Shown: positions 1-46,142 of the stretch, piece after piece | How positions within the stretch are numbered: position 1 is the first letter of the stretch | Layout: every line of letters starts with the position of its first letter | Source: Escherichia phage ULINTec7 | DNA length: 46,142 nt | Sequence record: MZ997841.1 | Reading direction: 5' to 3' (one strand) | The notes under the pieces: model-generated | The model's database searches: none | The model's input: the letters and a program-made list of their open reading frames with translations, nothing else | What the model was told of the DNA's origin: nothing | Translations under genes and position numbers: made by a program

Positions 1-634
1 CCATATGGGGTCGGTCGGCGGTTGACCTAGGAATTGGGCGGGGCGGGTCCGTCTTCAACCTGCTGCCGCAGGAAGCTCGACGGGTGGGCGAGGGCTTGCC
101 TTGTACTCGCTTAGTGGTACACAAGGAGAACGCCTAGGAAGCGCTAGGGCACGCCTTAGTATTGGACAAGGTGATTGCCTTAGTTCAACCGCTTAGGGCT
201 TACACGGGCCGTTTTAGGGCCATTCCTGAGCGTTTGACAGGGTGTGAGGGCGTGGGCTATCTGTTCGTTTCGTTCACTCCGCTTGCGCTACGTTCACTCG
301 CTCACGTGTACCTTAGGTTATTCCTTGATGGATAGCTTAGATTAGCCTTAGTGGATTACCTTAGTTAAAGCCTTAGTGCTTCACTTAGTATCAGCTTAGT
401 AGTGTACCTTAGTAAGTCTTAGTGTCTTCTCTTAGTGATTGCACATGCAAGCATGTAAGATGCCATTAGGTCGCGGTCGGTAGACCGCTAAAAGAAGGAG
501 AATAGTAATAAGATGCAGTAGGAGGAACACCAGAAGCCTAGCCAACCTAGCCTATCCTAGCTCTGTATCTATTGCTTTTCCTTAGTCTAACACGTTAGAC
601 AACCTATCTTATTCTTAGTGATGGTAACTTAGTG

Positions 635-663
635 TTGACAAGATAATCTTAGTGTAATACTAT
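635..663 (+). promoter_or_regulatory. Candidate host sigma70-type early promoter
   Basis: TTGACA at 635-640, 17-nt spacer, TACTAT at 658-663, upstream of the first early ORFs. Analogous to the T7 A-promoters. Confidence 0.45.
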
Positions 664-735
664 GCATCACGTAGGCGGTGCTGAGGCACCTAGTAGCCAG
701 CTAGTAAGGCATATGAAGAGACTAGCGCTTACATT

Positions 736-760
736 GCTCTTTAACAATTTGCTTAGTGTA
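736..760 (+). promoter_or_regulatory. Early-region conserved element, copy 1 (GCTCTTTAACAAT core, partial)
   Basis: Core GCTCTTTAACAAT at 736-748, lying 17 nt upstream of the ATG at 765. Confidence 0.4.
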
Positions 761-7875: not shown

Positions 7876-8662
7876 TAACATTAGCGCCGCCATGTAGTAA
7901 TACATGGGCAATAATCGTGTGAACTCAGGGGAAGACTAGAACAGTTAATCCTGAGCCAAGCTAGGCACACCTCAAATTCAAAGGAGGTGTTATGCAATTT
8001 AAAGAAGTACCAGATCACAGTAATTATATTTGTTATGAGAATGGCACGGTTGTTAATCGTAAGACTGGAAAGGTCTTGAAAGAAGATACAACTAACCGAG
8101 GTTATAAGCGGATTACAGTAAGCAAGGGCAACAAGGTAACACGTTGGAGTGTGCACCGTTTAGTTGCTTTACTGTTTATCCCTAACCCTCATAATTATGA
8201 AACTGTTAATCACATATCGGGAGATAAGACGGATAACTCTGTTAGTAATCTTGAGTGGATGAGCCAAGAACAGAACCAAGCCCATGCTAAATATACAGGA
8301 CTGTGTCCTAAAGGTGAGGCTGTTGGCACTAATAAGTTCAAAGAGGCAACTATTCATCAAGTGTGCAAGCTAATAGAGAAAGGTTTATCTCGCGGTGAAA
8401 TTATGAAAGCAACGAGCATCTCTAAAGCAACCTTTGATGACATTCGTAGAAGGAAGACTTGGAAGCACGTATCTTGTTCATATAAATGGTGACAATCTGG
8501 TGTGCCTAGAAGGTGCAACGACTATCCCGAAAGGGAGTACAGCCAAGCGGCTGGAAGCGCACGACACCCATCGTGGGTGATGATATAGTCTGGTCTATAT
8601 GGGGACATATAGCAGTTCATAAGAGAACGGGCGTGGCTTAGCGAACCACGTCGAACATAACG
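7876..8662 (+). mobile_element. Putative group I intron carrying an HNH homing endonuclease ORF, inserted in the helicase Walker A codons
   Basis: The 5' exon ends in U (7875) and the insert ends in G (8662). Exon 3' end GGCGU can pair with intron GCGCC at 7884-7888 (P1 with a U.G wobble). The downstream frame opens right after a stop at 8658-8660 with GKTEF and no start codon. Joining gives the contiguous P-loop GAGSGVGKTEF. Confidence 0.6.
7992..8492 (+). CDS. HNH homing endonuclease (intron-encoded)
   Basis: 166 aa with HRLVALLFIPNP...VNHISGDKTDNSVSNLEW, a typical HNH/AP2-type motif; AGGAGG SD upstream; a paralog of the ORF at 10976. Confidence 0.85.
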   Translation: MQFKEVPDHSNYICYENGTVVNRKTGKVLKEDTTNRGYKRITVSKGNKVTRWSVHRLVALLFIPNPHNYETVNHISGDKTDNSVSNLEWMSQEQNQAHAKYTGLCPKGEAVGTNKFKEATIHQVCKLIEKGLSRGEIMKATSISKATFDDIRRRKTWKHVSCSYKW

Positions 8663-10908: not shown

Positions 10909-11016
10909 ATGAATAACTACGACTCTGATTGGGATTTCTACGATTCAATGCAATCTAAACCAGAAAGGAGGGAGGATGAGTTCGAAACAGATCAAATGTA
11001 CGAGGATTTTTACTAA
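10909..11016 (+). CDS. Hypothetical small acidic protein (35 aa)
   Basis: Short ORF that overlaps the start of the HNH gene; weak call. Confidence 0.2.
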   Translation: MNNYDSDWDFYDSMQSKPERREDEFETDQMYEDFY

Positions 11017-11455
11017 CTACATCCTCTACTCTGATGGTCGAGTTCTTAACGAGAAAACCGGACAATATCTAAGAGGTTACTTAGATAAAGATGGGTATCA
11101 TATTATGAATATTAAAGGGAAACACCTTAAAGTTCATCGATTAGTTGCTATCCATTTCATACCTAACCCTAATAATTTACCTGAAGTTAACCATAAAGAT
11201 CATGACCGTCTAAACAATAATGATTGGAATCTAGAGTGGTGTACTCATCAAGATAACAACAAGCATAGCTTACATTTAGTAATAGCTTCTTGTGCTAAAC
11301 GCTATGACTTTATATCACCACAAGGTGTCCATGTAGAAGTCTATAACTTACGTGAGTTTTGTAGGAATAACAACCTACAGCAATCTCATATGGTTAAGGT
11401 GGCTAAAGGTAAAGTAAGACATCATAAAGGTTGGACTAATTATGCTAGATGTTGA
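10976..11455 (+). CDS. HNH homing endonuclease (free-standing)
   Basis: 159 aa with HRLVAIHFIPNP...VNHKDHDRLNNNDWNLEW; AGGAGGGAGG SD; paralog of the intron ORF at 7992. Confidence 0.85.
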   Translation: MSSKQIKCTRIFTNYILYSDGRVLNEKTGQYLRGYLDKDGYHIMNIKGKHLKVHRLVAIHFIPNPNNLPEVNHKDHDRLNNNDWNLEWCTHQDNNKHSLHLVIASCAKRYDFISPQGVHVEVYNLREFCRNNNLQQSHMVKVAKGKVRHHKGWTNYARC

Positions 11456-37194: not shown

Positions 37195-37389
37195 ATGATT
37201 AACTCCGAACTGGTAGATAGTGGTGTGAAGCTTGCGCCACCTGCACTCGTATCAGGTGGGTACTTCCTCGGTATCAGTTGGGATAATTGGGTGTTAATAG
37301 CAACATTCATTTATACCGTGTTGCAAATTGGGGACTGGTTTTATAATAAGTTCAAGATTTGGAGGGAGAAGCGTGAGCGTACACAATAA
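37195..37389 (+). CDS. Holin (T7 gp17.5-like)
   Basis: 64 aa; IATFIYTVLQIGDWFYNKFKIWREKRE resembles T7 gp17.5 VAAIAYTVVQIGAKVVDKMIDWKKANKE; one transmembrane segment and a charged C-terminus. Confidence 0.75.
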   Translation: MINSELVDSGVKLAPPALVSGGYFLGISWDNWVLIATFIYTVLQIGDWFYNKFKIWREKRERTQ

Positions 37390-37672
37390 ACATGCAGCTA
37401 CAGAGGACGAGGTTGGCATTCTGCATGGTGCTATTACCAAAATCTTTAATAAGAAAGCACAGGCAATACTGGACACTATAGAAGAAGACCCAGATGCAGC
37501 ATTGCATTTAGTGTCTGGTAAAGACATTGGAGCTATGTGTAAGTGGGTTCTTGATAATGGTATTACCGCTACACCTGCTGCACAGCAGGAAGAGTCCAAG
37601 TTATCTAAGCGCCTCAAGGCTATCCGAGAGGCATCCAGTGGTAAGATAATTCAATTCACTAAGGAGGATTGA
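37373..37672 (+). CDS. Terminase small subunit (putative)
   Basis: GTG start at 37373 with GGAGGGA SD; sits immediately before the large terminase. Confidence 0.5.
   Translation: MSVHNKHAATEDEVGILHGAITKIFNKKAQAILDTIEEDPDAALHLVSGKDIGAMCKWVLDNGITATPAAQQEESKLSKRLKAIREASSGKIIQFTKED
37466..37488 (+). promoter_or_regulatory. Phage-RNAP promoter inside the small terminase gene
   Basis: AATACTGGACACTATAGAAGAAG. Confidence 0.6.
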
Positions 37673-39570
37673 TGGCTAAGGCAAGAGAATCACAAGCGGA
37701 GGCTCTTGCCAGATGGGAGATGCTACAGGAGTTACAGCAGACCTTTCCCTATACAGCGGAAGGTTTGCTTCTCTTTGCAGATACAGTTATCCATAACTTG
37801 ATTGCAGGCAACCCTCATCTGATTCGTATGCAGGCTGATATCTTGAAGTTCCTATTCTACGGACATAAGTATCGCCTCATCGAAGCGCCTCGTGGTATCG
37901 CTAAGACAACACTATCAGCAATCTATACGGTATTCCGTATTATCCACGAACCGCATAAGCGTATCATGGTTGTATCCCAAAACGCTAAGCGAGCAGAGGA
38001 AATCGCTGGTTGGGTGGTGAAAATCTTCCGTGGCCTAGACTTCCTTGAGTTTATGCTGCCGGATATCTACGCAGGGGACCGTGCATCCGTTAAAGCATTT
38101 GAGATTCATTACACCCTACGTGGTAGTGATAAGTCTCCCTCTGTATCCTGTTACTCAATCGAAGCAGGTATGCAGGGTGCTCGTGCTGATATTATTCTAG
38201 CGGATGACGTAGAGTCGATGCAGAATGCTCGTACGGCAGCGGGCCGTGCCTTGCTTGAGGAACTGACTAAGGAGTTTGAATCTATCAACCAGTTTGGGGA
38301 TATCATTTACCTTGGTACGCCTCAGAACGTAAACTCTATCTACAACAACCTACCTGCTCGTGGCTACTCTGTTCGTATCTGGACTGCACGTTACCCCTCA
38401 GTGGAGCAGGAGCAATGCTATGGTGACTTCCTTGCACCTATGATTGTGCAGGATATGAAGGACAACCCCGCACTTCGCTCTGGTTATGGGTTGGATGGTA
38501 ATAGTGGTGCACCTTGTGCCCCTGAAATGTATGATGATGAAGTCCTGATTGAGAAGGAAATCTCTCAGGGTGCAGCTAAGTTCCAGCTTCAGTTCATGCT
38601 TAACACTCGCATGATGGATGCAGACCGCTACCCACTACGCCTGAACAACCTCATCTTCACCTCATTTGGTACAGAGGAAGTCCCTGTGATGCCTACGTGG
38701 AGCAATGACTCCATCAACATCATCGGTGATGCACCGAAGTATGGCAATAAGCCTACAGACTTCATGTATAGACCTGTGGCTCGCCCGTATGAATGGGGTG
38801 CTGTTACACGCAAGATTATGTATATTGACCCTGCTGGTGGTGGTAAGAATGGTGACGAAACAGGCGTGGCTATAGTCTTTCTGCACGGCACATTCATTTA
38901 CGTGTATCAGTGCTTCGGTGTGCCAGGCGGATACCGTGAATCGTCCCTGAATCGCATTGTGCAGGCCGCAAAGCAGGCGGGTGTTAAAGAGGTATTCATT
39001 GAGAAGAACTTTGGTCATGGCGCGTTTGAGGCCGTTATAAAGCCATACTTTGAACGAGAGTGGCCTGTAACTCTGGAAGAGGATTACGCCACAGGACAGA
39101 AAGAGTTGCGTATCATTGAGACGCTGGAGCCACTCATGGCGGCGCACAGGCTCATCTTCAATGCCGAGATGGTCAAGTCTGACCTTGAGTCAGTACAGCA
39201 CTATCCACTTGAACTACGCATGTCCTACAGCCTTTTCAATCAAATGTCGAACATCACGATTGAGAAGAACAGCCTCCGGCACGATGACCGCTTAGACGCT
39301 CTGTATGGCGCTATACGGCAATTAACTTCTCAGATAGACTATGACGAGGTTACACGGATTAATCGCCTCAGAGCGCAGGAGATGCGCGATTACATCCATG
39401 CTATGAACACACCTCACCTCCGTAGGGCGATGCTCTATGGAGATTATGGCACTGAGCGAAGAGTAACCAACACTTCCGTGGCTATGCAGCAAAGAGTGTA
39501 CGGTCAGAATTACAGGAGTAAATCGGCCAACCGAAATACACTTTCTGCAAGGATTTCAAGGACTTATTAA
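37669..39570 (+). CDS. Terminase large subunit
   Basis: 633 aa; ATPase and nuclease region with IILADDVES; position and size match T7 gp19. Confidence 0.85.
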   Translation: MMAKARESQAEALARWEMLQELQQTFPYTAEGLLLFADTVIHNLIAGNPHLIRMQADILKFLFYGHKYRLIEAPRGIAKTTLSAIYTVFRIIHEPHKRIMVVSQNAKRAEEIAGWVVKIFRGLDFLEFMLPDIYAGDRASVKAFEIHYTLRGSDKSPSVSCYSIEAGMQGARADIILADDVESMQNARTAAGRALLEELTKEFESINQFGDIIYLGTPQNVNSIYNNLPARGYSVRIWTARYPSVEQEQCYGDFLAPMIVQDMKDNPALRSGYGLDGNSGAPCAPEMYDDEVLIEKEISQGAAKFQLQFMLNTRMMDADRYPLRLNNLIFTSFGTEEVPVMPTWSNDSINIIGDAPKYGNKPTDFMYRPVARPYEWGAVTRKIMYIDPAGGGKNGDETGVAIVFLHGTFIYVYQCFGVPGGYRESSLNRIVQAAKQAGVKEVFIEKNFGHGAFEAVIKPYFEREWPVTLEEDYATGQKELRIIETLEPLMAAHRLIFNAEMVKSDLESVQHYPLELRMSYSLFNQMSNITIEKNSLRHDDRLDALYGAIRQLTSQIDYDEVTRINRLRAQEMRDYIHAMNTPHLRRAMLYGDYGTERRVTNTSVAMQQRVYGQNYRSKSANRNTLSARISRTY

Positions 39571-41270: not shown

Positions 41271-41349
41271 GTAAGATAGCGCCGTTCTTTTGAGCGGCCT
41301 ATTACTAGCCAATCTTCATAGGGAGGGTTGGAAAGTAATAGGAGATAGC

Positions 41350-43248
41350 ATGGCTAAATTAACCAAACCTAATACTGAAGGAATCTTGCATAAAGGACAA
41401 TCTTTGTATGAGTACCTTGATGCGAGAGTTTTAACATCAAAGCCATTTGGTGCTGCAGGTGACGCCACTACTGATGATACGGAGGTTATAGCTGCTTCAT
41501 TAAACTCTCAGAAAGCTGTCACAGTCTCAGATGGTGTATTCTCTAGCTCTGGTATTAATAGTAATTACTGTAACTTAGACGGTAGGGGTAGTGGCGTGCT
41601 AAGTCACCGTTCCAGTACAGGTAATTACTTAGTATTTAACAATCTACGTGCAGGTCGCTTAAGTAATATTACGGTAGAAAGTAATAAGGAGACTGATACA
41701 ACTCAGGGGCAGCAGGTATCTCTTGCTGGTGGAAGTGATGTTACTGTAAGTGACGTTAACTTCTCAAACGTTAAAGGTACTGGTTTCAGTTTAATCGCAT
41801 ACCCTAATGATGCGCCACCTGATGGACTTATGATTAAAGGCATTCGAGGTAGCTATTCCGGCTATGCTACTAATAAGGCAGCAGGATGCGTACTTGCTGA
41901 CTCCTCAGTTAACTCACTCATAGATAACGTCATTGCTAAGAACTACCCTCAGTTCGGAGCAGTAGAGTTGAAAGGTACAGCCAGTTACAACATAGTCAGT
42001 AATGTTATAGGGGCAGATTGCCAGCATGTAACTTACAACGGCACTGAAGGGCCAATAGCCCCTTCTAATAACCTTATCAAGGGGGTGATGGCTAATAACC
42101 CTAAGTATGCAGCGGTTGTTGCAGGCAAAGGAAGTACGAACTTAATCTCAGACGTGCTAGTAGATTACTCAACTTCTGATGCTAGGCAGGCTCATGGTGT
42201 TACCGTAGAAGGGTCTGATAACGTCATAAATAATGTGCTTATGTCAGGATGTGATGGTACTAACTCTTTAGGACAAGGGCAGACTGCTACAATTGCACGC
42301 TTTATAGGTACAGCTAATAACAACTATGCGTCTGTATTTCCTAGCTACAGTGCTACAGGTGTTATTACTTTCGAATCCGGCTCTACCCGTAACTTCGTAG
42401 AGGTAAAGCACCCTGGCAGGAGAAACGACCTTCTCAGTTCTGCTAGTACTATTGACGGTGCAGCTACTATTGACGGCACTAGTAATAGTAACGTAGTGCA
42501 CGCACCTGCCTTAGGGCAGTACATAGGTAGTATGTCAGGCAGGTTCGAATGGCGGATTAAGTCCATGTCACTCCCTTCAGGAGTTCTTACTTCTGCTGAT
42601 AAGTACAGAATGCTTGGAGATGGTGCTGTGTCATTAGCTGTAGGTGGGGGCACTTCTTCTCAAGTTCGCCTATTTACTTCTGATGGTACTTCTCGGACAG
42701 TGGCCTTCACCAACGGTAACGTGCGTCTTTCTACCAGTAGCACAGGCTATTTGCAGTTAGGTGCTGATGCAATGACCCCAGATAGTACTGGTACATACGC
42801 ATTAGGTTCCGCCAGTCGAGCATGGTCTGGCGGTTTTACTCAAGCAGCATTCACTGTTACCTCAGATGCTCGGTGTAAAACAGAACCTCTTACTATCTCA
42901 GATGCCTTACTGGATGCTTGGTCTGAAGTTGACTTTGTGCAGTTTCAGTATTTGGATCGGGTTGAGGAGAAGGGTGCAGACTCAGCTAGATGGCACTTTG
43001 GTGTCATCGCTCAGCGAGCTAAGGAAGCTTTCGAACGTCACGGCATAGATGCACACCGCTATGGCTTCTTGTGCTTCGACAGTTGGGATGCTGTATACGA
43101 GGAAGATGCCAATGGCTCTCGTAAGCTGATTACACCAGCAGGTTCCCGCTACGGTATTCGTTACGAGGAAGTACTGATATTAGAGGCTGCATTGATGCGG
43201 CGGACTATTAAGCGTATGCAGGAAGCACTAGCTGCCCTTCATAAGTAA
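41350..43248 (+). CDS. Tailspike 1: beta-helix polysaccharide depolymerase-like protein with C-terminal intramolecular chaperone domain
   Basis: 632 aa from the ATG at 41350 (AGGAG SD). Repetitive Gly/Ser/Thr/Asn/Val-rich beta-helix-like sequence. C-terminus SDARCK...GIRYEEVLILEAA is homologous to the endosialidase C-terminus. Confidence 0.7.
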   Translation: MAKLTKPNTEGILHKGQSLYEYLDARVLTSKPFGAAGDATTDDTEVIAASLNSQKAVTVSDGVFSSSGINSNYCNLDGRGSGVLSHRSSTGNYLVFNNLRAGRLSNITVESNKETDTTQGQQVSLAGGSDVTVSDVNFSNVKGTGFSLIAYPNDAPPDGLMIKGIRGSYSGYATNKAAGCVLADSSVNSLIDNVIAKNYPQFGAVELKGTASYNIVSNVIGADCQHVTYNGTEGPIAPSNNLIKGVMANNPKYAAVVAGKGSTNLISDVLVDYSTSDARQAHGVTVEGSDNVINNVLMSGCDGTNSLGQGQTATIARFIGTANNNYASVFPSYSATGVITFESGSTRNFVEVKHPGRRNDLLSSASTIDGAATIDGTSNSNVVHAPALGQYIGSMSGRFEWRIKSMSLPSGVLTSADKYRMLGDGAVSLAVGGGTSSQVRLFTSDGTSRTVAFTNGNVRLSTSSTGYLQLGADAMTPDSTGTYALGSASRAWSGGFTQAAFTVTSDARCKTEPLTISDALLDAWSEVDFVQFQYLDRVEEKGADSARWHFGVIAQRAKEAFERHGIDAHRYGFLCFDSWDAVYEEDANGSRKLITPAGSRYGIRYEEVLILEAALMRRTIKRMQEALAALHK

Positions 43249-43333: not shown

Positions 43334-45769
43334 ATGATTCAAAGACTAGGTTCTTCATTAGTTAAATTCAAGAGTAAGATAGCGGGTGCAATCTGGCGCA
43401 ACTTGGATGACAAGCTCACCGAGGTTGTATCTCTTAAGGACTTTGGGGCCAAAGGTGATGGTAAGACTAACGACCAAGATGCAGTAAATGCAGCGATGGC
43501 TTCAGGTAAGAGAATTGACGGTGCTGGTGCTACTTACAAAGTATCATCTTTACCTGATATGGAGCGGTTCTATAATACACGCTTCGTATGGGAACGTTTA
43601 GCGGGTCAACCTCTTTACTATGTGAGTAAAGGTTTTATCAATGGTGAACTCTATAAAATCACGGATAATCCTTATTACAATGCTTGGCCTCAAGACAAAG
43701 CGTTTGTATATGAGAATGTGATATATGCACCTTACATGGGTAGCGACCGTCACGGTGTTAGTCGTCTGCATGTATCATGGGTTAAGTCTGGTGACGATGG
43801 TCAAACATGGTCTACTCCAGAGTGGTTAACTGCCCTGCATCCAGATTACCCTACAGTGAACTATCATTGTATGAGTATGGGTGTATGTCGCAACCGTCTG
43901 TTTGCCATGATTGAAACACGTACTTTAGCCAAGAACGCACTAACCAATTGTGCATTGTGGGACCGCCCCATGTCTCGTAGTCTGCATCTCACTGGTGGTA
44001 TCACTAAAGCTGCAAATCAGCGATATGCAACAATACATGTACCAGATCACGGACTATTCGTGGGTGATTTTGTTAACTTCTCTAACTCTGCGGTAACAGG
44101 TGTATCAGGTGATATGGCTGTTGCAACTGTAATAGATAAGGACAACTTCACGGTTCTTACACCTAACCAGCAGACTTCAGATTTGAATAACGCTGGAAAA
44201 AGTTGGCACATGGGTACTTCTTTCCATAAGTCTCCATGGCGTAAGACAGATCTTGGTCTAATCCCTCGTGTCACAGAGGTGCATAGCTTTGCTACTATTG
44301 ATAATAATGGCTTTGTTATGGGCTATCATCAAGGTGATGTAGCTCCACGAGAAGTTGGGCTTTTCTACTTCCCTGATGCTTTCAATAGCCCATCTAATTA
44401 TGTTCGTCGTCAGATACCATCTGAGTATGAACCAGATGCGTCAGAACCATGCATCAAGTACTATGACGGTGTATTATACCTTATCACTCGTGGCACTCGT
44501 GGTGACAGACTTGGAAGCTCTTTGCATCGTAGTAGAGATATAGGTCAGACTTGGGAGTCACTAAGATTTCCACATAATGTGCATCATACTACTTTACCGT
44601 TTGCTAAGGTAGGAGATGACCTTATTATGTTTGGTTCAGAACGTGCAGAAAACGAATGGGAAGCAGGTGCACCAGATGATCGTTACAAGGCATCTTATCC
44701 TCGTACCTTCTATGCACGATTGAATGTAAACAAATGGAATGCAGATGATATTGAATGGGTTAACATCACAGACCAAATCTATCAGGGTGACATTGTGAAC
44801 TCTAGTGTAGGTGTAGGTTCTGTTGTAGTTAAAGACAGCTACATTTACTATATCTTTGGTGGTGAAAACCATTTCAACCCAATGACTTATGGTGACAACA
44901 AAGATAAAGATCCATTTAAAGGCCACGGACACCCTACTGATATATACTGCTATAAGATGCAGATTGCAAATGACAATCGTGTATCTCGTAAGTTTACATA
45001 TGGTGCAACTCCTGGTCAAGCTATACCTACTTTCATGGGTACTGATGGTGTTCGTATTATCCCTGCTCCACTTCACTTAGCAGGAGAGGTGGTTGCAGCA
45101 GATATTACTGTCGAACATCTTACCCTGAAGGCAAGTACAAGTGCTGATATTCGCTCAGAGATGCTGATGGAAGGTGAGTATGGGTTTATTGGTAAAACTA
45201 TACCAACGGATAACCCGACAGCCCAACGTGTTATCATATCTGGTGGAGATGGTACAGCAGCAGATAAAGGTGCGCAAATTACCTTACACGGAGCAGGTTC
45301 TAGTACCTCTAGACGCGCAGTATATAATGCCAATGAGCACTTGTTCCAAAGTGGGGCCATTATGCCATACAATGATAACGTGTACCCTGCTGGCGGTCCT
45401 CGTAATAGATTCACTACTATCCACCTTACAAGTGACCCTATTATTACGTCTGATGCCACTCATAAGTACGGCTCACAAGGTATTGATGAGCAAGTACTAA
45501 AGGCATGGGGTAAGGTTTACTTCAAGCAGTACAAGTTGATTGGCGAGATGTCTCGTGGTGTACATCACACTCACTTTGGTGTATTGGCACAAGATATTGT
45601 AGCTGCTTTTGCATCCGAAGGGTTAGATGCAATCGACTTCGGCATTGTCTCCTTCGAAGAAGGTCAGTTTGGTGTTAGATATAGTGAAATCTTAATCTTG
45701 GAAGCTGCCTATACTCGCTATCGTCTTGATAAATTAGAGGAGATGTATGCCGCTAATAAAATCAGTTAA
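43334..45769 (+). CDS. Tailspike 2: endosialidase-like (endo-N-acetylneuraminidase) with C-terminal intramolecular chaperone domain
   Basis: 811 aa. Two Asp-box motifs, SGDDGQTW and SRDIGQTW. N-terminal DFGAKGDGKTNDQDAVNAA. C-terminal TSDATHK...GVRYSEILILEAA chaperone-like region. AAGGAGG SD. Confidence 0.8.
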   Translation: MIQRLGSSLVKFKSKIAGAIWRNLDDKLTEVVSLKDFGAKGDGKTNDQDAVNAAMASGKRIDGAGATYKVSSLPDMERFYNTRFVWERLAGQPLYYVSKGFINGELYKITDNPYYNAWPQDKAFVYENVIYAPYMGSDRHGVSRLHVSWVKSGDDGQTWSTPEWLTALHPDYPTVNYHCMSMGVCRNRLFAMIETRTLAKNALTNCALWDRPMSRSLHLTGGITKAANQRYATIHVPDHGLFVGDFVNFSNSAVTGVSGDMAVATVIDKDNFTVLTPNQQTSDLNNAGKSWHMGTSFHKSPWRKTDLGLIPRVTEVHSFATIDNNGFVMGYHQGDVAPREVGLFYFPDAFNSPSNYVRRQIPSEYEPDASEPCIKYYDGVLYLITRGTRGDRLGSSLHRSRDIGQTWESLRFPHNVHHTTLPFAKVGDDLIMFGSERAENEWEAGAPDDRYKASYPRTFYARLNVNKWNADDIEWVNITDQIYQGDIVNSSVGVGSVVVKDSYIYYIFGGENHFNPMTYGDNKDKDPFKGHGHPTDIYCYKMQIANDNRVSRKFTYGATPGQAIPTFMGTDGVRIIPAPLHLAGEVVAADITVEHLTLKASTSADIRSEMLMEGEYGFIGKTIPTDNPTAQRVIISGGDGTAADKGAQITLHGAGSSTSRRAVYNANEHLFQSGAIMPYNDNVYPAGGPRNRFTTIHLTSDPIITSDATHKYGSQGIDEQVLKAWGKVYFKQYKLIGEMSRGVHHTHFGVLAQDIVAAFASEGLDAIDFGIVSFEEGQFGVRYSEILILEAAYTRYRLDKLEEMYAANKIS

Positions 45770-45904: not shown

Positions 45905-46030
45905 ATATCTTAGTGTACACAAGGGCAGACTTAGGTTTGCTCTTAGTGTCCTCAAAGGAGGTTGTAGGTATGTTATCGTTGTTGTGTATACTAAGTGATG
46001 TCCTAGGTCGTAAGAGGTACATTCTTAGTG
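45905..46030. repeat. Right-end copies of the CTTAGTG short repeat
   Basis: TCTTAGTG at 45908-45915, 45941-45948 and 46023-46030; ACTTAGG at 45929-45935; an inverted copy CTAAGTG near 45991. Confidence 0.6.
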
Positions 46031-46142
46031 AAGACCAAATAAGGGACGAGAAGATACGGAGGTCGCTCACAAAGTAACCAAAGTCAAAATTTTGATACAG
46101 GCGTGTGTGAGGTGTCTCGCCCTCGCCCTCGCCGGGTTGTCC

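Follow-up and report, generated by a model that had tools for sequence, protein, structure and literature searches.

The closest described systems are the short-repeat arrays at the genome ends of phages T7 and T3, which were reportedly named SRL and SRR by Dunn and Studier in 1983 and are said to have been known since the T7 genome was sequenced. Heptamers of the CCTAAAG type lie on a single strand of T7, with three copies in the 160-bp direct terminal repeat (DTR), about 15 in an array following the DTR (positions 175–355, at 12–13 bp spacing) and four within the 145 bp preceding the right-hand DTR. A CTTAAAG copy overlaps sequence just upstream of the annotated position of the A1 promoter (498), and the heptanucleotide ATCTGTT immediately follows the DTR. 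Phage T3 has the same heptamer words and the same boundary signal. Here we analyse an array of CTTAGT repeats in the genome of Escherichia phage ULINTec7 (MZ997841.1), the whole 46,142-nucleotide stretch of which, read 5' to 3' on one strand, is referred to as the window. The repeats are real, strongly conserved and one-directional, and they bracket the DTR at the junction between neighbouring genomes in a concatemer. By the comparisons presented below the array is the SP6/K1-5-lineage counterpart of the T7 arrays and, by sequence, not of the same repeat family. The kind of element is already known from T7, and an array in another K1E-like genome would hardly surprise a specialist; no paper mentioning the CTTAGT word in phages was found by a search outside which the SP6 and K1-5 genome papers (Dobbins 2004; Scholl 2004) lay.

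Results

Frequency and polarity of the repeats

Copies were counted in positions 100–770 of the window and the counts compared with those from 2000 dinucleotide-preserving shuffles. The pentamer CTTAG is present 19 times (positions 110, 155, 179, 192, 312, 336, 347, 360, 372, 384, 395, 408, 418, 431, 581, 614, 628, 648 and 752), and the longer forms CTTAGT, CTTAGTG and CCTTAG are present 16, 9 and 8 times, respectively. All CTTAG copies are on one strand, the reverse complement CTAAG being absent from this interval as against 76 occurrences genome-wide. Shuffled sequences contained 2.35 ± 1.44 copies of CTTAG (maximum 9), 0.80 of CTTAGT and 0.15 of CTTAGTG, whilst the rate in the rest of the genome predicts 0.71 copies of CTTAG (Poisson P = 6e-21 for the 19 observed). 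The original prediction, made from the letters and open reading frames (ORFs) of this DNA, had noted approximately 20 CTTAGTG-type repeats at 110–760; that number is borne out by these counts, and the frequency is far above the shuffled expectation, against which it had been proposed to be checked. When all 5-mers were compared, CTTAG was the most enriched of the region, and away from the junction it occurs at chance level (44 copies in 801–45800 against 44.1 expected under a second-order Markov model). Enrichment is limited to approximately 1.2 kb around the junction, where the sub-clusters are each significant separately. In a de novo word search no hexamer was more enriched at the junction than CTTAGT, both in the window (P = 2e-27) and in K1E, SP6 and Pm5460. 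The information profile derived from 146 copies in nine genomes consists of a 6-bp core, CTTAGT, flanked by a weakly preferred C on the 5' side and G on the 3' side. The CTTAGTG-type unit described originally thus keeps its final G as a weak preference, but the conserved core is the hexamer.

Repeat copies and the direct terminal repeat

The window is a Vectrevirus genome (SP6 group; Autographiviridae, Molineuxvirinae), with 90–95% identity to K1E, K1-5 and other Vectrevirus phages over the first 3 kb and approximately 94% identity to K1E. Exact DTRs of K1E (288 bp), mutPK1A2 (286 bp), K1-5 (234 bp) and SP6 (174 bp) start with TCTCGCC(C/T) or 1–2 bases further in, and in all four the boundary at the DTR end is GGGCTA followed by TCTGTT. 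The window contains the DTR in single copy and a second copy is not present. Read against these relatives, the window represents an entire genome, its DTR collapsed, that was opened 28 bp inside the repeat, and by the same reading the physical left end of the genome is elsewhere than at position 1. The DTR is predicted to span 287 bp, a length that is approximate in that the boundary is placed by homology to relatives, in the following two parts.

46115–46142 (+): predicted first 28 bp of the DTR (TCTCGCCCTCGCCCTCGCCGGGTTGTCC), by homology to the DTR starts of K1E, mutPK1A2, K1-5 and SP6.
1–259 (+): predicted remainder of the DTR, ending in GGGCTA right before TCTGTT, by homology to the DTR ends of the same four relatives.

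The first gene starts at 807 and the ORFs upstream of it are all of 57 amino acids or fewer, none of them annotated in relatives, so that the earlier statement that the first 760 bp lack ORFs holds in practice. The array had also been assigned to a non-coding left end; it is present there, but position 1 is not the physical end and four of the copies are inside the predicted DTR. With the junction read as circularised, the copies were sorted into five groups.

45909–46029 (+): right-flank group, CTTAG(T/G) at 45909, 45930, 45942 and 46024, lying 206–91 bp upstream of the DTR (4 copies against 0.21 expected, P = 7e-5).
110–197 (+): group within the DTR, CTTAG(T/G) at 110, 155, 179 and 192 (4 copies against 0.28 expected in 287 bp, P = 2e-4).
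312–437 (+): main array, ten copies of CTTAG(T/G) at 312, 336, 347, 360, 372, 384, 395, 408, 418 and 431 (10 copies against 0.18 expected, P = 7e-15).
581–653 (+): promoter-proximal group, CTTAGT at 581, 614, 628 and 648, around the first host promoter.
752–758 (+): single CTTAGTG at 752 in the early leader, within the first of four CTCTTTAACAAT boxes.

The right-flank triplet CTTAGTGTA..CTTAGGTT..CTTAGTGT is kept at the same place in SP6, K1-5, K1E and mutPK1A2, and the positions of the copies within the DTR are kept among Vectrevirus relatives. The main array begins 53 bp beyond the DTR and its last nine copies are spaced by 11.9 ± 1.05 bp. Offsets of the promoter-proximal copies from the main array (approximately 149 bp, then 33 bp) are maintained from K1E-type phages to SP6, and together with the leader copy this group amounts to 5 copies in 441–800 against 0.35 expected (P = 3e-5).

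This layout bears on a possible role in genome entry, by which the left end would enter the cell first and the repeats would serve, up to the point at which host polymerase takes hold at the 635 promoter, as a ratchet, a brake or a handle for the internal proteins ejected from the virion. In T7 approximately the first 850 bp enter without transcription, and the left-end copies of the window all lie upstream of or within the first promoter, in DNA that needs transcription-free entry. The right-end cluster weakens this explanation and we know of nothing that makes T7 entry sequence-specific, so that a role in entry appears improbable. Presence of copies on both flanks of the DTR and inside it argues for a function at the junction rather than at the leading end.

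Conservation and lineage dependence

A hexamer array at the same place is found in SP6 (Zindervirus, Salmonella), Pm5460 (Acadevirus, Proteus), K1-ULIP33 (Klebsiella), VEc3 and a Raoultella phage, as well as in 20 further IMG/VR contigs retrieved by means of a conserved hairpin that follows the array. The array, whose absence from related phages had been raised as a possibility by the original prediction, was thus present in all the relatives examined, SP6 and the Proteus and Klebsiella phages among them. The register of the copies relative to the downstream hairpin is nearly fixed among relatives, the array copy number varies slightly between them, and reverse-complement copies at the junction number 0–1 in the window and relatives. 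Alignment of 25 unique sequences gave 94% conservation for hexamer columns and 69–71% for spacers (Mann-Whitney P ~ 1e-13). Since the hexamers are better conserved than the spacers and their register is fixed relative to downstream landmarks, these data indicate selection that would act on the individual sites and their polarity and not on the whole stretch. The same comparison addresses the proposal that the repeats have no sequence-specific function and are a by-product of replication slippage or duplication in a non-coding spacer. Tandem Repeats Finder reported periods of 13 and 23–25 in the main array, which suggests that the copies probably arose by duplication, and slight differences in copy number between relatives are also in keeping with such an origin. 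A functionless by-product is nevertheless extremely improbable given the excess of hexamer over spacer conservation, the strict polarity and the dispersed copies at conserved positions on both sides of the DTR across genera.

The motif tracks phage lineage and not host: phages of this group infecting E. coli, Salmonella, Proteus and Klebsiella share CTTAGT, whereas T7 and T3 on E. coli use words (CCTAAAG/CTTAAAG) other than those of K1E-type phages on the same host. This pattern suggests that the word is read by a phage-encoded protein. Sites for a host protein, for example a nucleoid-associated protein, would superficially fit the phased short repeats near a promoter, which resemble the site clusters of architectural proteins. 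Use of one hexamer across four host genera, together with the different words of T7/T3 and K1E-type phages on E. coli, led us to reject host-factor sites as an identity for the repeats, and elsewhere in the phage genome there is no excess of the word; such a function is very unlikely.

Counterparts in other Autographiviridae

The window and T7/T3 are alike in being Autographiviridae with exact DTRs and a T7-type terminase (PF11123/PF22530), and in having polar 6–7-bp units within the DTR, a phased array after the DTR and ATCTGTT, a smaller right-flank cluster and copies reaching the first host promoter. The T7 and window copy numbers are 3 and 4 within the DTR, approximately 15 and 10 after it, and 4 and 4 before the right-hand DTR. 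They differ in the unit, which is CCTAAAG or CTTAAAG in T7/T3 and CTTAGT(G) in the window, and in spacing, which is approximately 13 bp in T7 and approximately 12 bp in the window. A phage promoter equivalent to phiOL is absent after the window array, the first ..ACACTATAG promoter being at approximately 2384; the array is followed instead by two hairpins, a CCTAGC triplet and a second boundary-like signal, ATCTATT. Derivation of the repeats from phage-promoter fragments was rejected: none of the 14 phage promoters (consensus ATTTACTGGACACTATAGAAG) is in 1–2380 and their upstream half is unlike CTTAGT, and the promoters of T3 and T7 differ yet their heptamer is the same.

Polar short repeats beside the DTR were found in all sampled Autographiviridae lineages, with a word that differs by lineage. 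In Era103, a more distant member of the Molineuxvirinae, the words enriched past the 277-bp DTR are CTAGGC and CTTATG, in addition to longer repeats. Era103 positions 277–650 contain CTTATGG/CCTTATG on one strand only, words of the GGCTAGGCTA type and a unit of approximately 37 bp present three times. In phiKMV, CCTGG(C)/CTCCCTGG words are present past the 414-bp DTR at 414–860, nearly all on one strand. Short repeats beside the DTR therefore look general for Autographiviridae, so far as the sampled genomes represent the family. The original prediction had considered the array analogous to, and distinct in sequence from, those of T7. The layout is indeed the same and the unit different, but the two may be related in that CTTAGTG shares five of seven positions with the T3/T7 variant CTTAAAG. 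CTTAGTG, CTTAAAG and the CTTATGG of Era103 have CTTA..G in common and may be diverged relatives rather than independent inventions.

Elements at the junction

The junction contains a further element directly at the predicted right boundary of the DTR.

259–265 (+): ATCTGTT, a putative class II pause/termination signal of T7-type RNA polymerase ('CJ' site) at the DTR right boundary; a heptamer match on the non-template strand, with K1E-type pausing predicted.

ATCTGTT is also located at the DTR boundary in T7, T3, SP6, K1E and K1-5. In published papers the class II pause/termination signals for T7 RNA polymerase are described as having this heptamer for their invariant core, with a natural example at the T7 concatemer junction. 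Variants at the DTR boundary are ATCTATT in K1-ULIP33 and ATCTATC in Era103, and a near-copy in the window, ATCTATT at 567–573 (ATCTGTT in VEc3), is approximately 310 bp downstream of 259–265, just ahead of the promoter-proximal repeats. The fifth base of the signal may be tolerant in this subfamily.

A perfect TTGACA is located upstream of the junction signal at 234–239; it is kept in most relatives including Era103 and missing in the ULIP33 group. The distance from this TTGACA to a would-be -10 element varies from 18 to more than 23 nt among relatives, and a promoter role for it is for that reason doubtful. Two hairpins lie right after the last array copy, at 438–488 (CACATGC-aa-GCATGT at 442–456 and GCGGTC-ggta-GACCGC at 473–488). 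Pairing of the first is retained in relatives via other sequences (CATAGC/GCTATG, ACAAGC/GCTTGT) and that of the second is retained in Pm5460 as AGCTTGC/GCAAGC. These hairpins had no Rfam match, and were spotted by eye and by folding, their stems being 6–7 bp; a search for inverted repeats of length 12 or more detected nothing. The word AAGATGC follows the first hairpin at 457 and is present again at 510, and a CCTAGC triplet with 9–10-bp spacing (CCTAGCCAACCTAGCCTATCCTAGC) at 537–561 is kept in Vectrevirus and SP6 relatives.

These elements are pertinent to the suggestion that the repeats function in RNA. A host-polymerase transcript starting from the junction (TTGACA at 234–239 plus the ATCTGTT region) would contain ten CUUAGU copies and two hairpins, and early in infection might serve as a protein sponge or as a regulatory RNA. 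According to a preprint, the T7 junction has context-dependent promoter activity in E. coli, and the region downstream is suggested to function at the RNA level; perfect TTGACA upstream of the junction in most relatives, continued pairing of the two downstream hairpins and strict strand polarity would all suit an RNA. The same preprint found that stable transcripts from the T7 region are not abundant, and the extended -10 element (TGnTA) proposed for T7 is absent from the window, which reads TGTTCGTTT instead. The spacing from TTGACA to the would-be -10 (approximately 18 to more than 23 nt) and the loss of TTGACA from the ULIP33 group also count against such a transcript, as does a promoter scan that called none at the junction. 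Copies upstream of and within the DTR would be outside it, and no Rfam match was obtained up to E = 1 for either strand of 1–1400. An RNA role is consequently judged quite unlikely. A structured RNA as the identity of the repeats was rejected on the lack of Rfam matches and the variable spacing of TTGACA upstream of the junction.

The first promoter and the early leader

Downstream of the main array the copies extend into a candidate promoter, and the last copy is in the leader of the early transcripts.

635–663 (+): candidate sigma-70-type early promoter, TTGACA at 635–640, a 17-bp spacer and TACTAT at 658–663 (promoter scan, 10 of 12 matches).
737–748, 1272–1283, 1584–1595 and 1847–1858: four CTCTTTAACAAT boxes between early genes, resembling the RNase III sites of T7/T3 early leaders.

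The site at 635–663 is the only strong sigma-70 candidate among the copies, and the annotation of Proteus phage Pm5460 lists its ortholog as a putative host promoter. Host-type promoter candidates had been said to be interleaved with the repeats; this is correct for one strong candidate, and for that one only. Copy 628 adjoins the -35 hexamer and copy 648 is within the promoter spacer. Approximately 35 bp upstream of the -35 of this first promoter, copy 581 is overlapped by a perfect palindrome of 16 bp, GTCTAACACGTTAGAC, at 585–600. The counterpart of the palindrome in Pm5460 and K1-ULIP33 is GTCCAACA(T/C)GTTGGAC, with symmetry retained despite changes in both arms; the element looks like an operator for a dimeric protein.

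Overlap with the promoter raises the alternative that the reader of the repeats is some other phage-encoded protein unrelated to packaging, either an early or middle protein that shuts off the first host promoter or one that caps or protects the genome end. In addition to copies 628 and 648 at the -35 hexamer and in the spacer, at least one copy is beside or within the orthologous promoter in SP6, Pm5460, VEc3 and Raoultella P3a, the T7 CTTAAAG copy likewise overlaps sequence just upstream of A1, and a lineage-dependent motif would suit any phage-encoded reader. Eighteen of 23 copies are, however, far from any promoter, and copies are on both DTR flanks including the far right genome end. The small early proteins contain no convincing DNA-binding domain, the sole match being HTH_23 with E = 0.009, which is under the Pfam cut-off, and the feature is common to T7, T3, phiKMV and Era103, whose early genes differ. 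We regard a reader of this kind as unlikely.

The CTCTTTAACAAT boxes are likely processing sites of the early transcript. The same box is found upstream of T7 gene 0.3, and an RNase III site, R0.3, is annotated in the corresponding region of T3. At the offset at which the first box has CTTAGTG copy 752, the boxes at 1272, 1584 and 1847 have GCTAGTG, GTTTGTG and GGTAGTC. Copy 752 probably belongs to the RNase III-like box and not to the array, because it is at a fixed offset in a box whose three paralogues carry other words.

Other features of the genome

Two large tailspike-type ORFs are in tandem at 41290–43248 and 43334–45769. The second matches the K1E endosialidase at 89%, and the first has only a 34% match over 27% of its length in K1E. 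This suggests a putative dual-spike arrangement, which we take to resemble that of K1-5. ORFs at 7992–8492 (166 amino acids) and 10976–11455 (159 amino acids) have no SP6 or Pm5460 counterpart and are approximately 47% identical to Era103 sequences; for the latter ORF, K1E has only a 45% match over 30% of the length. They may be inserted homing-endonuclease genes.

Discussion

The candidate partners of the repeats in packaging are encoded towards the right end of the window.

37328–39570 (+): T7-type terminase genes, with the predicted small subunit (gp18 family) at 37328–37672 (PF11123, E = 5e-16) and the predicted large subunit at 37669–39570 (PF22530, E = 1.6e-35).

From these matches we infer that the two terminase subunits are candidate trans-acting partners of the repeats. 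The explanation that we tentatively favour, as plausible if still short of probable, is that the repeats form a polar platform for the small terminase and organise processing of the concatemer junction. In a concatemer, neighbouring genomes would share one DTR bracketed by copies, with four upstream, four inside and ten past ATCTGTT, and more extending into the first promoter. The copies would act as DNA, offering a phage-encoded protein a polar platform with many binding sites. The likeliest reader of this platform would be an oligomeric small terminase of the gp18 family, working with the large terminase and a paused phage RNA polymerase. Such a complex would mark the junction, fix its geometry and help to place the cuts and the DTR duplication from which unit genomes result, and covering of the early promoter late in infection would be a by-product. 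In the secondary literature gp18 is described as recognising pacB in T7 concatemers, and a polymerase-lysozyme complex paused at the junction as interacting with gp18 and gp19, thereby starting maturation. The same body of literature states that T3 and T7 gp18 are interchangeable and places the specificity of packaging in gp19 and the terminal 5% of the genome. Since T3 and T7 share the heptamer and differ in promoter and packaging specificity, gp18 would fit best as the reader, rather than gp19 or the polymerase.

A number of points weigh against a small-terminase platform. Our literature search found no binding or genetic data on such repeats in any phage and no statement of the position of pacB relative to the T7 heptamers, and in a 2026 preprint the T7 region after the junction is called 'unassigned'. 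Both here and in T7 it is by position that a role in concatemer processing or packaging is suggested. The small terminase is approximately 85–90% identical to that of the window in SP6 and Pm5460, where the motif is shared, and approximately 55% identical in Era103, which has other repeats. Identity declines similarly for the polymerase, the large terminase and the capsid protein of these phages, and small-terminase divergence gives no signal of co-variation with the motif because it tracks genome-wide divergence. No solved structure for the gp18 family was found, and an arrangement in which each terminase subunit takes one hexamer, with ten sites wrapping the ring once, is conjecture. In T7 the direction of packaging is leftward, beginning at the cut that is made at the right-hand DTR edge. 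With leftward packaging the large post-DTR array would be on DNA not packaged from that cut, and it would then act in termination, DTR duplication or end protection and not in initiation.

A more detailed form of the small-terminase platform is doubtful, if possible. According to it, the CTTAGT arrays and the related CTTANNG-type words of T7/T3, and perhaps of Era103, would be the recognition platform of the gp18 family as a whole. Approximately ten polar sites at 12-bp spacing would wrap once around a terminase ring beside the polymerase paused at ATCTGTT, whilst the clusters upstream of and inside the DTR would hold the other arm. The resulting geometry would direct the nick and DTR duplication by strand displacement, and late in infection this complex would also block the early promoter.

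A gp18 platform, if true, would provide a defined, mutable cis element for the formation of terminally redundant ends in T7-like phages, a process whose mechanism in T3/T7 is called poorly understood in a 2026 review. Short polar repeats are the most conspicuous unexplained cis feature of the junction, and their hexamer-level conservation, their lineage dependence and the presence of repeats in several subfamilies give mutation, footprinting and plasmid-packaging assays something definite to aim at. The layout also allows the true genome ends to be placed from sequence alone in assemblies opened inside a collapsed DTR, and defines what packaging-competent phagemids for SP6/K1-5-type phages should keep.

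Comparison with other systems

Three groups of well-described elements resemble the CTTAGT repeats in part. Plasmid iterons and R1 parC likewise consist of some ten direct repeats at 11–13-bp spacing with partial promoter overlap, an architecture that nucleates cooperative filaments or rings. They differ from the window in that no Rep, ParA/ParB or ParR-type gene is nearby, the location is a phage concatemer junction and the core is 6 bp. A plasmid iteron or partition centromere was rejected as an identity, as Pfam searches of the six nearest ORFs gave no Rep or partition domain and the gene content is lytic and SP6-like. The FtsK-orienting polar sequences (KOPS) and the Chi sites of RecBCD are, like CTTAGT, one-stranded short words readable by a one-way motor, which here would be the packaging motor nearing the left end. 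Those words are distributed genome-wide with skewed orientation, whereas CTTAG is at chance outside the junction. The lambda cosB R sites and cosQ, pacL and pacR of SPP1 and pac of P22 are also made up of multiple short sites beside a terminase cut site, and a review states in general terms that an oligomeric small terminase reads such sites and positions the large subunit. Binding is demonstrated in the cos and pac systems and predicted in the window, where exact DTR ends need duplication of the repeat and where approximately 23 sites of strict polarity are unusual. The likeness of the CTTAGT repeats to these packaging sites would be one of mechanism and not of homology.

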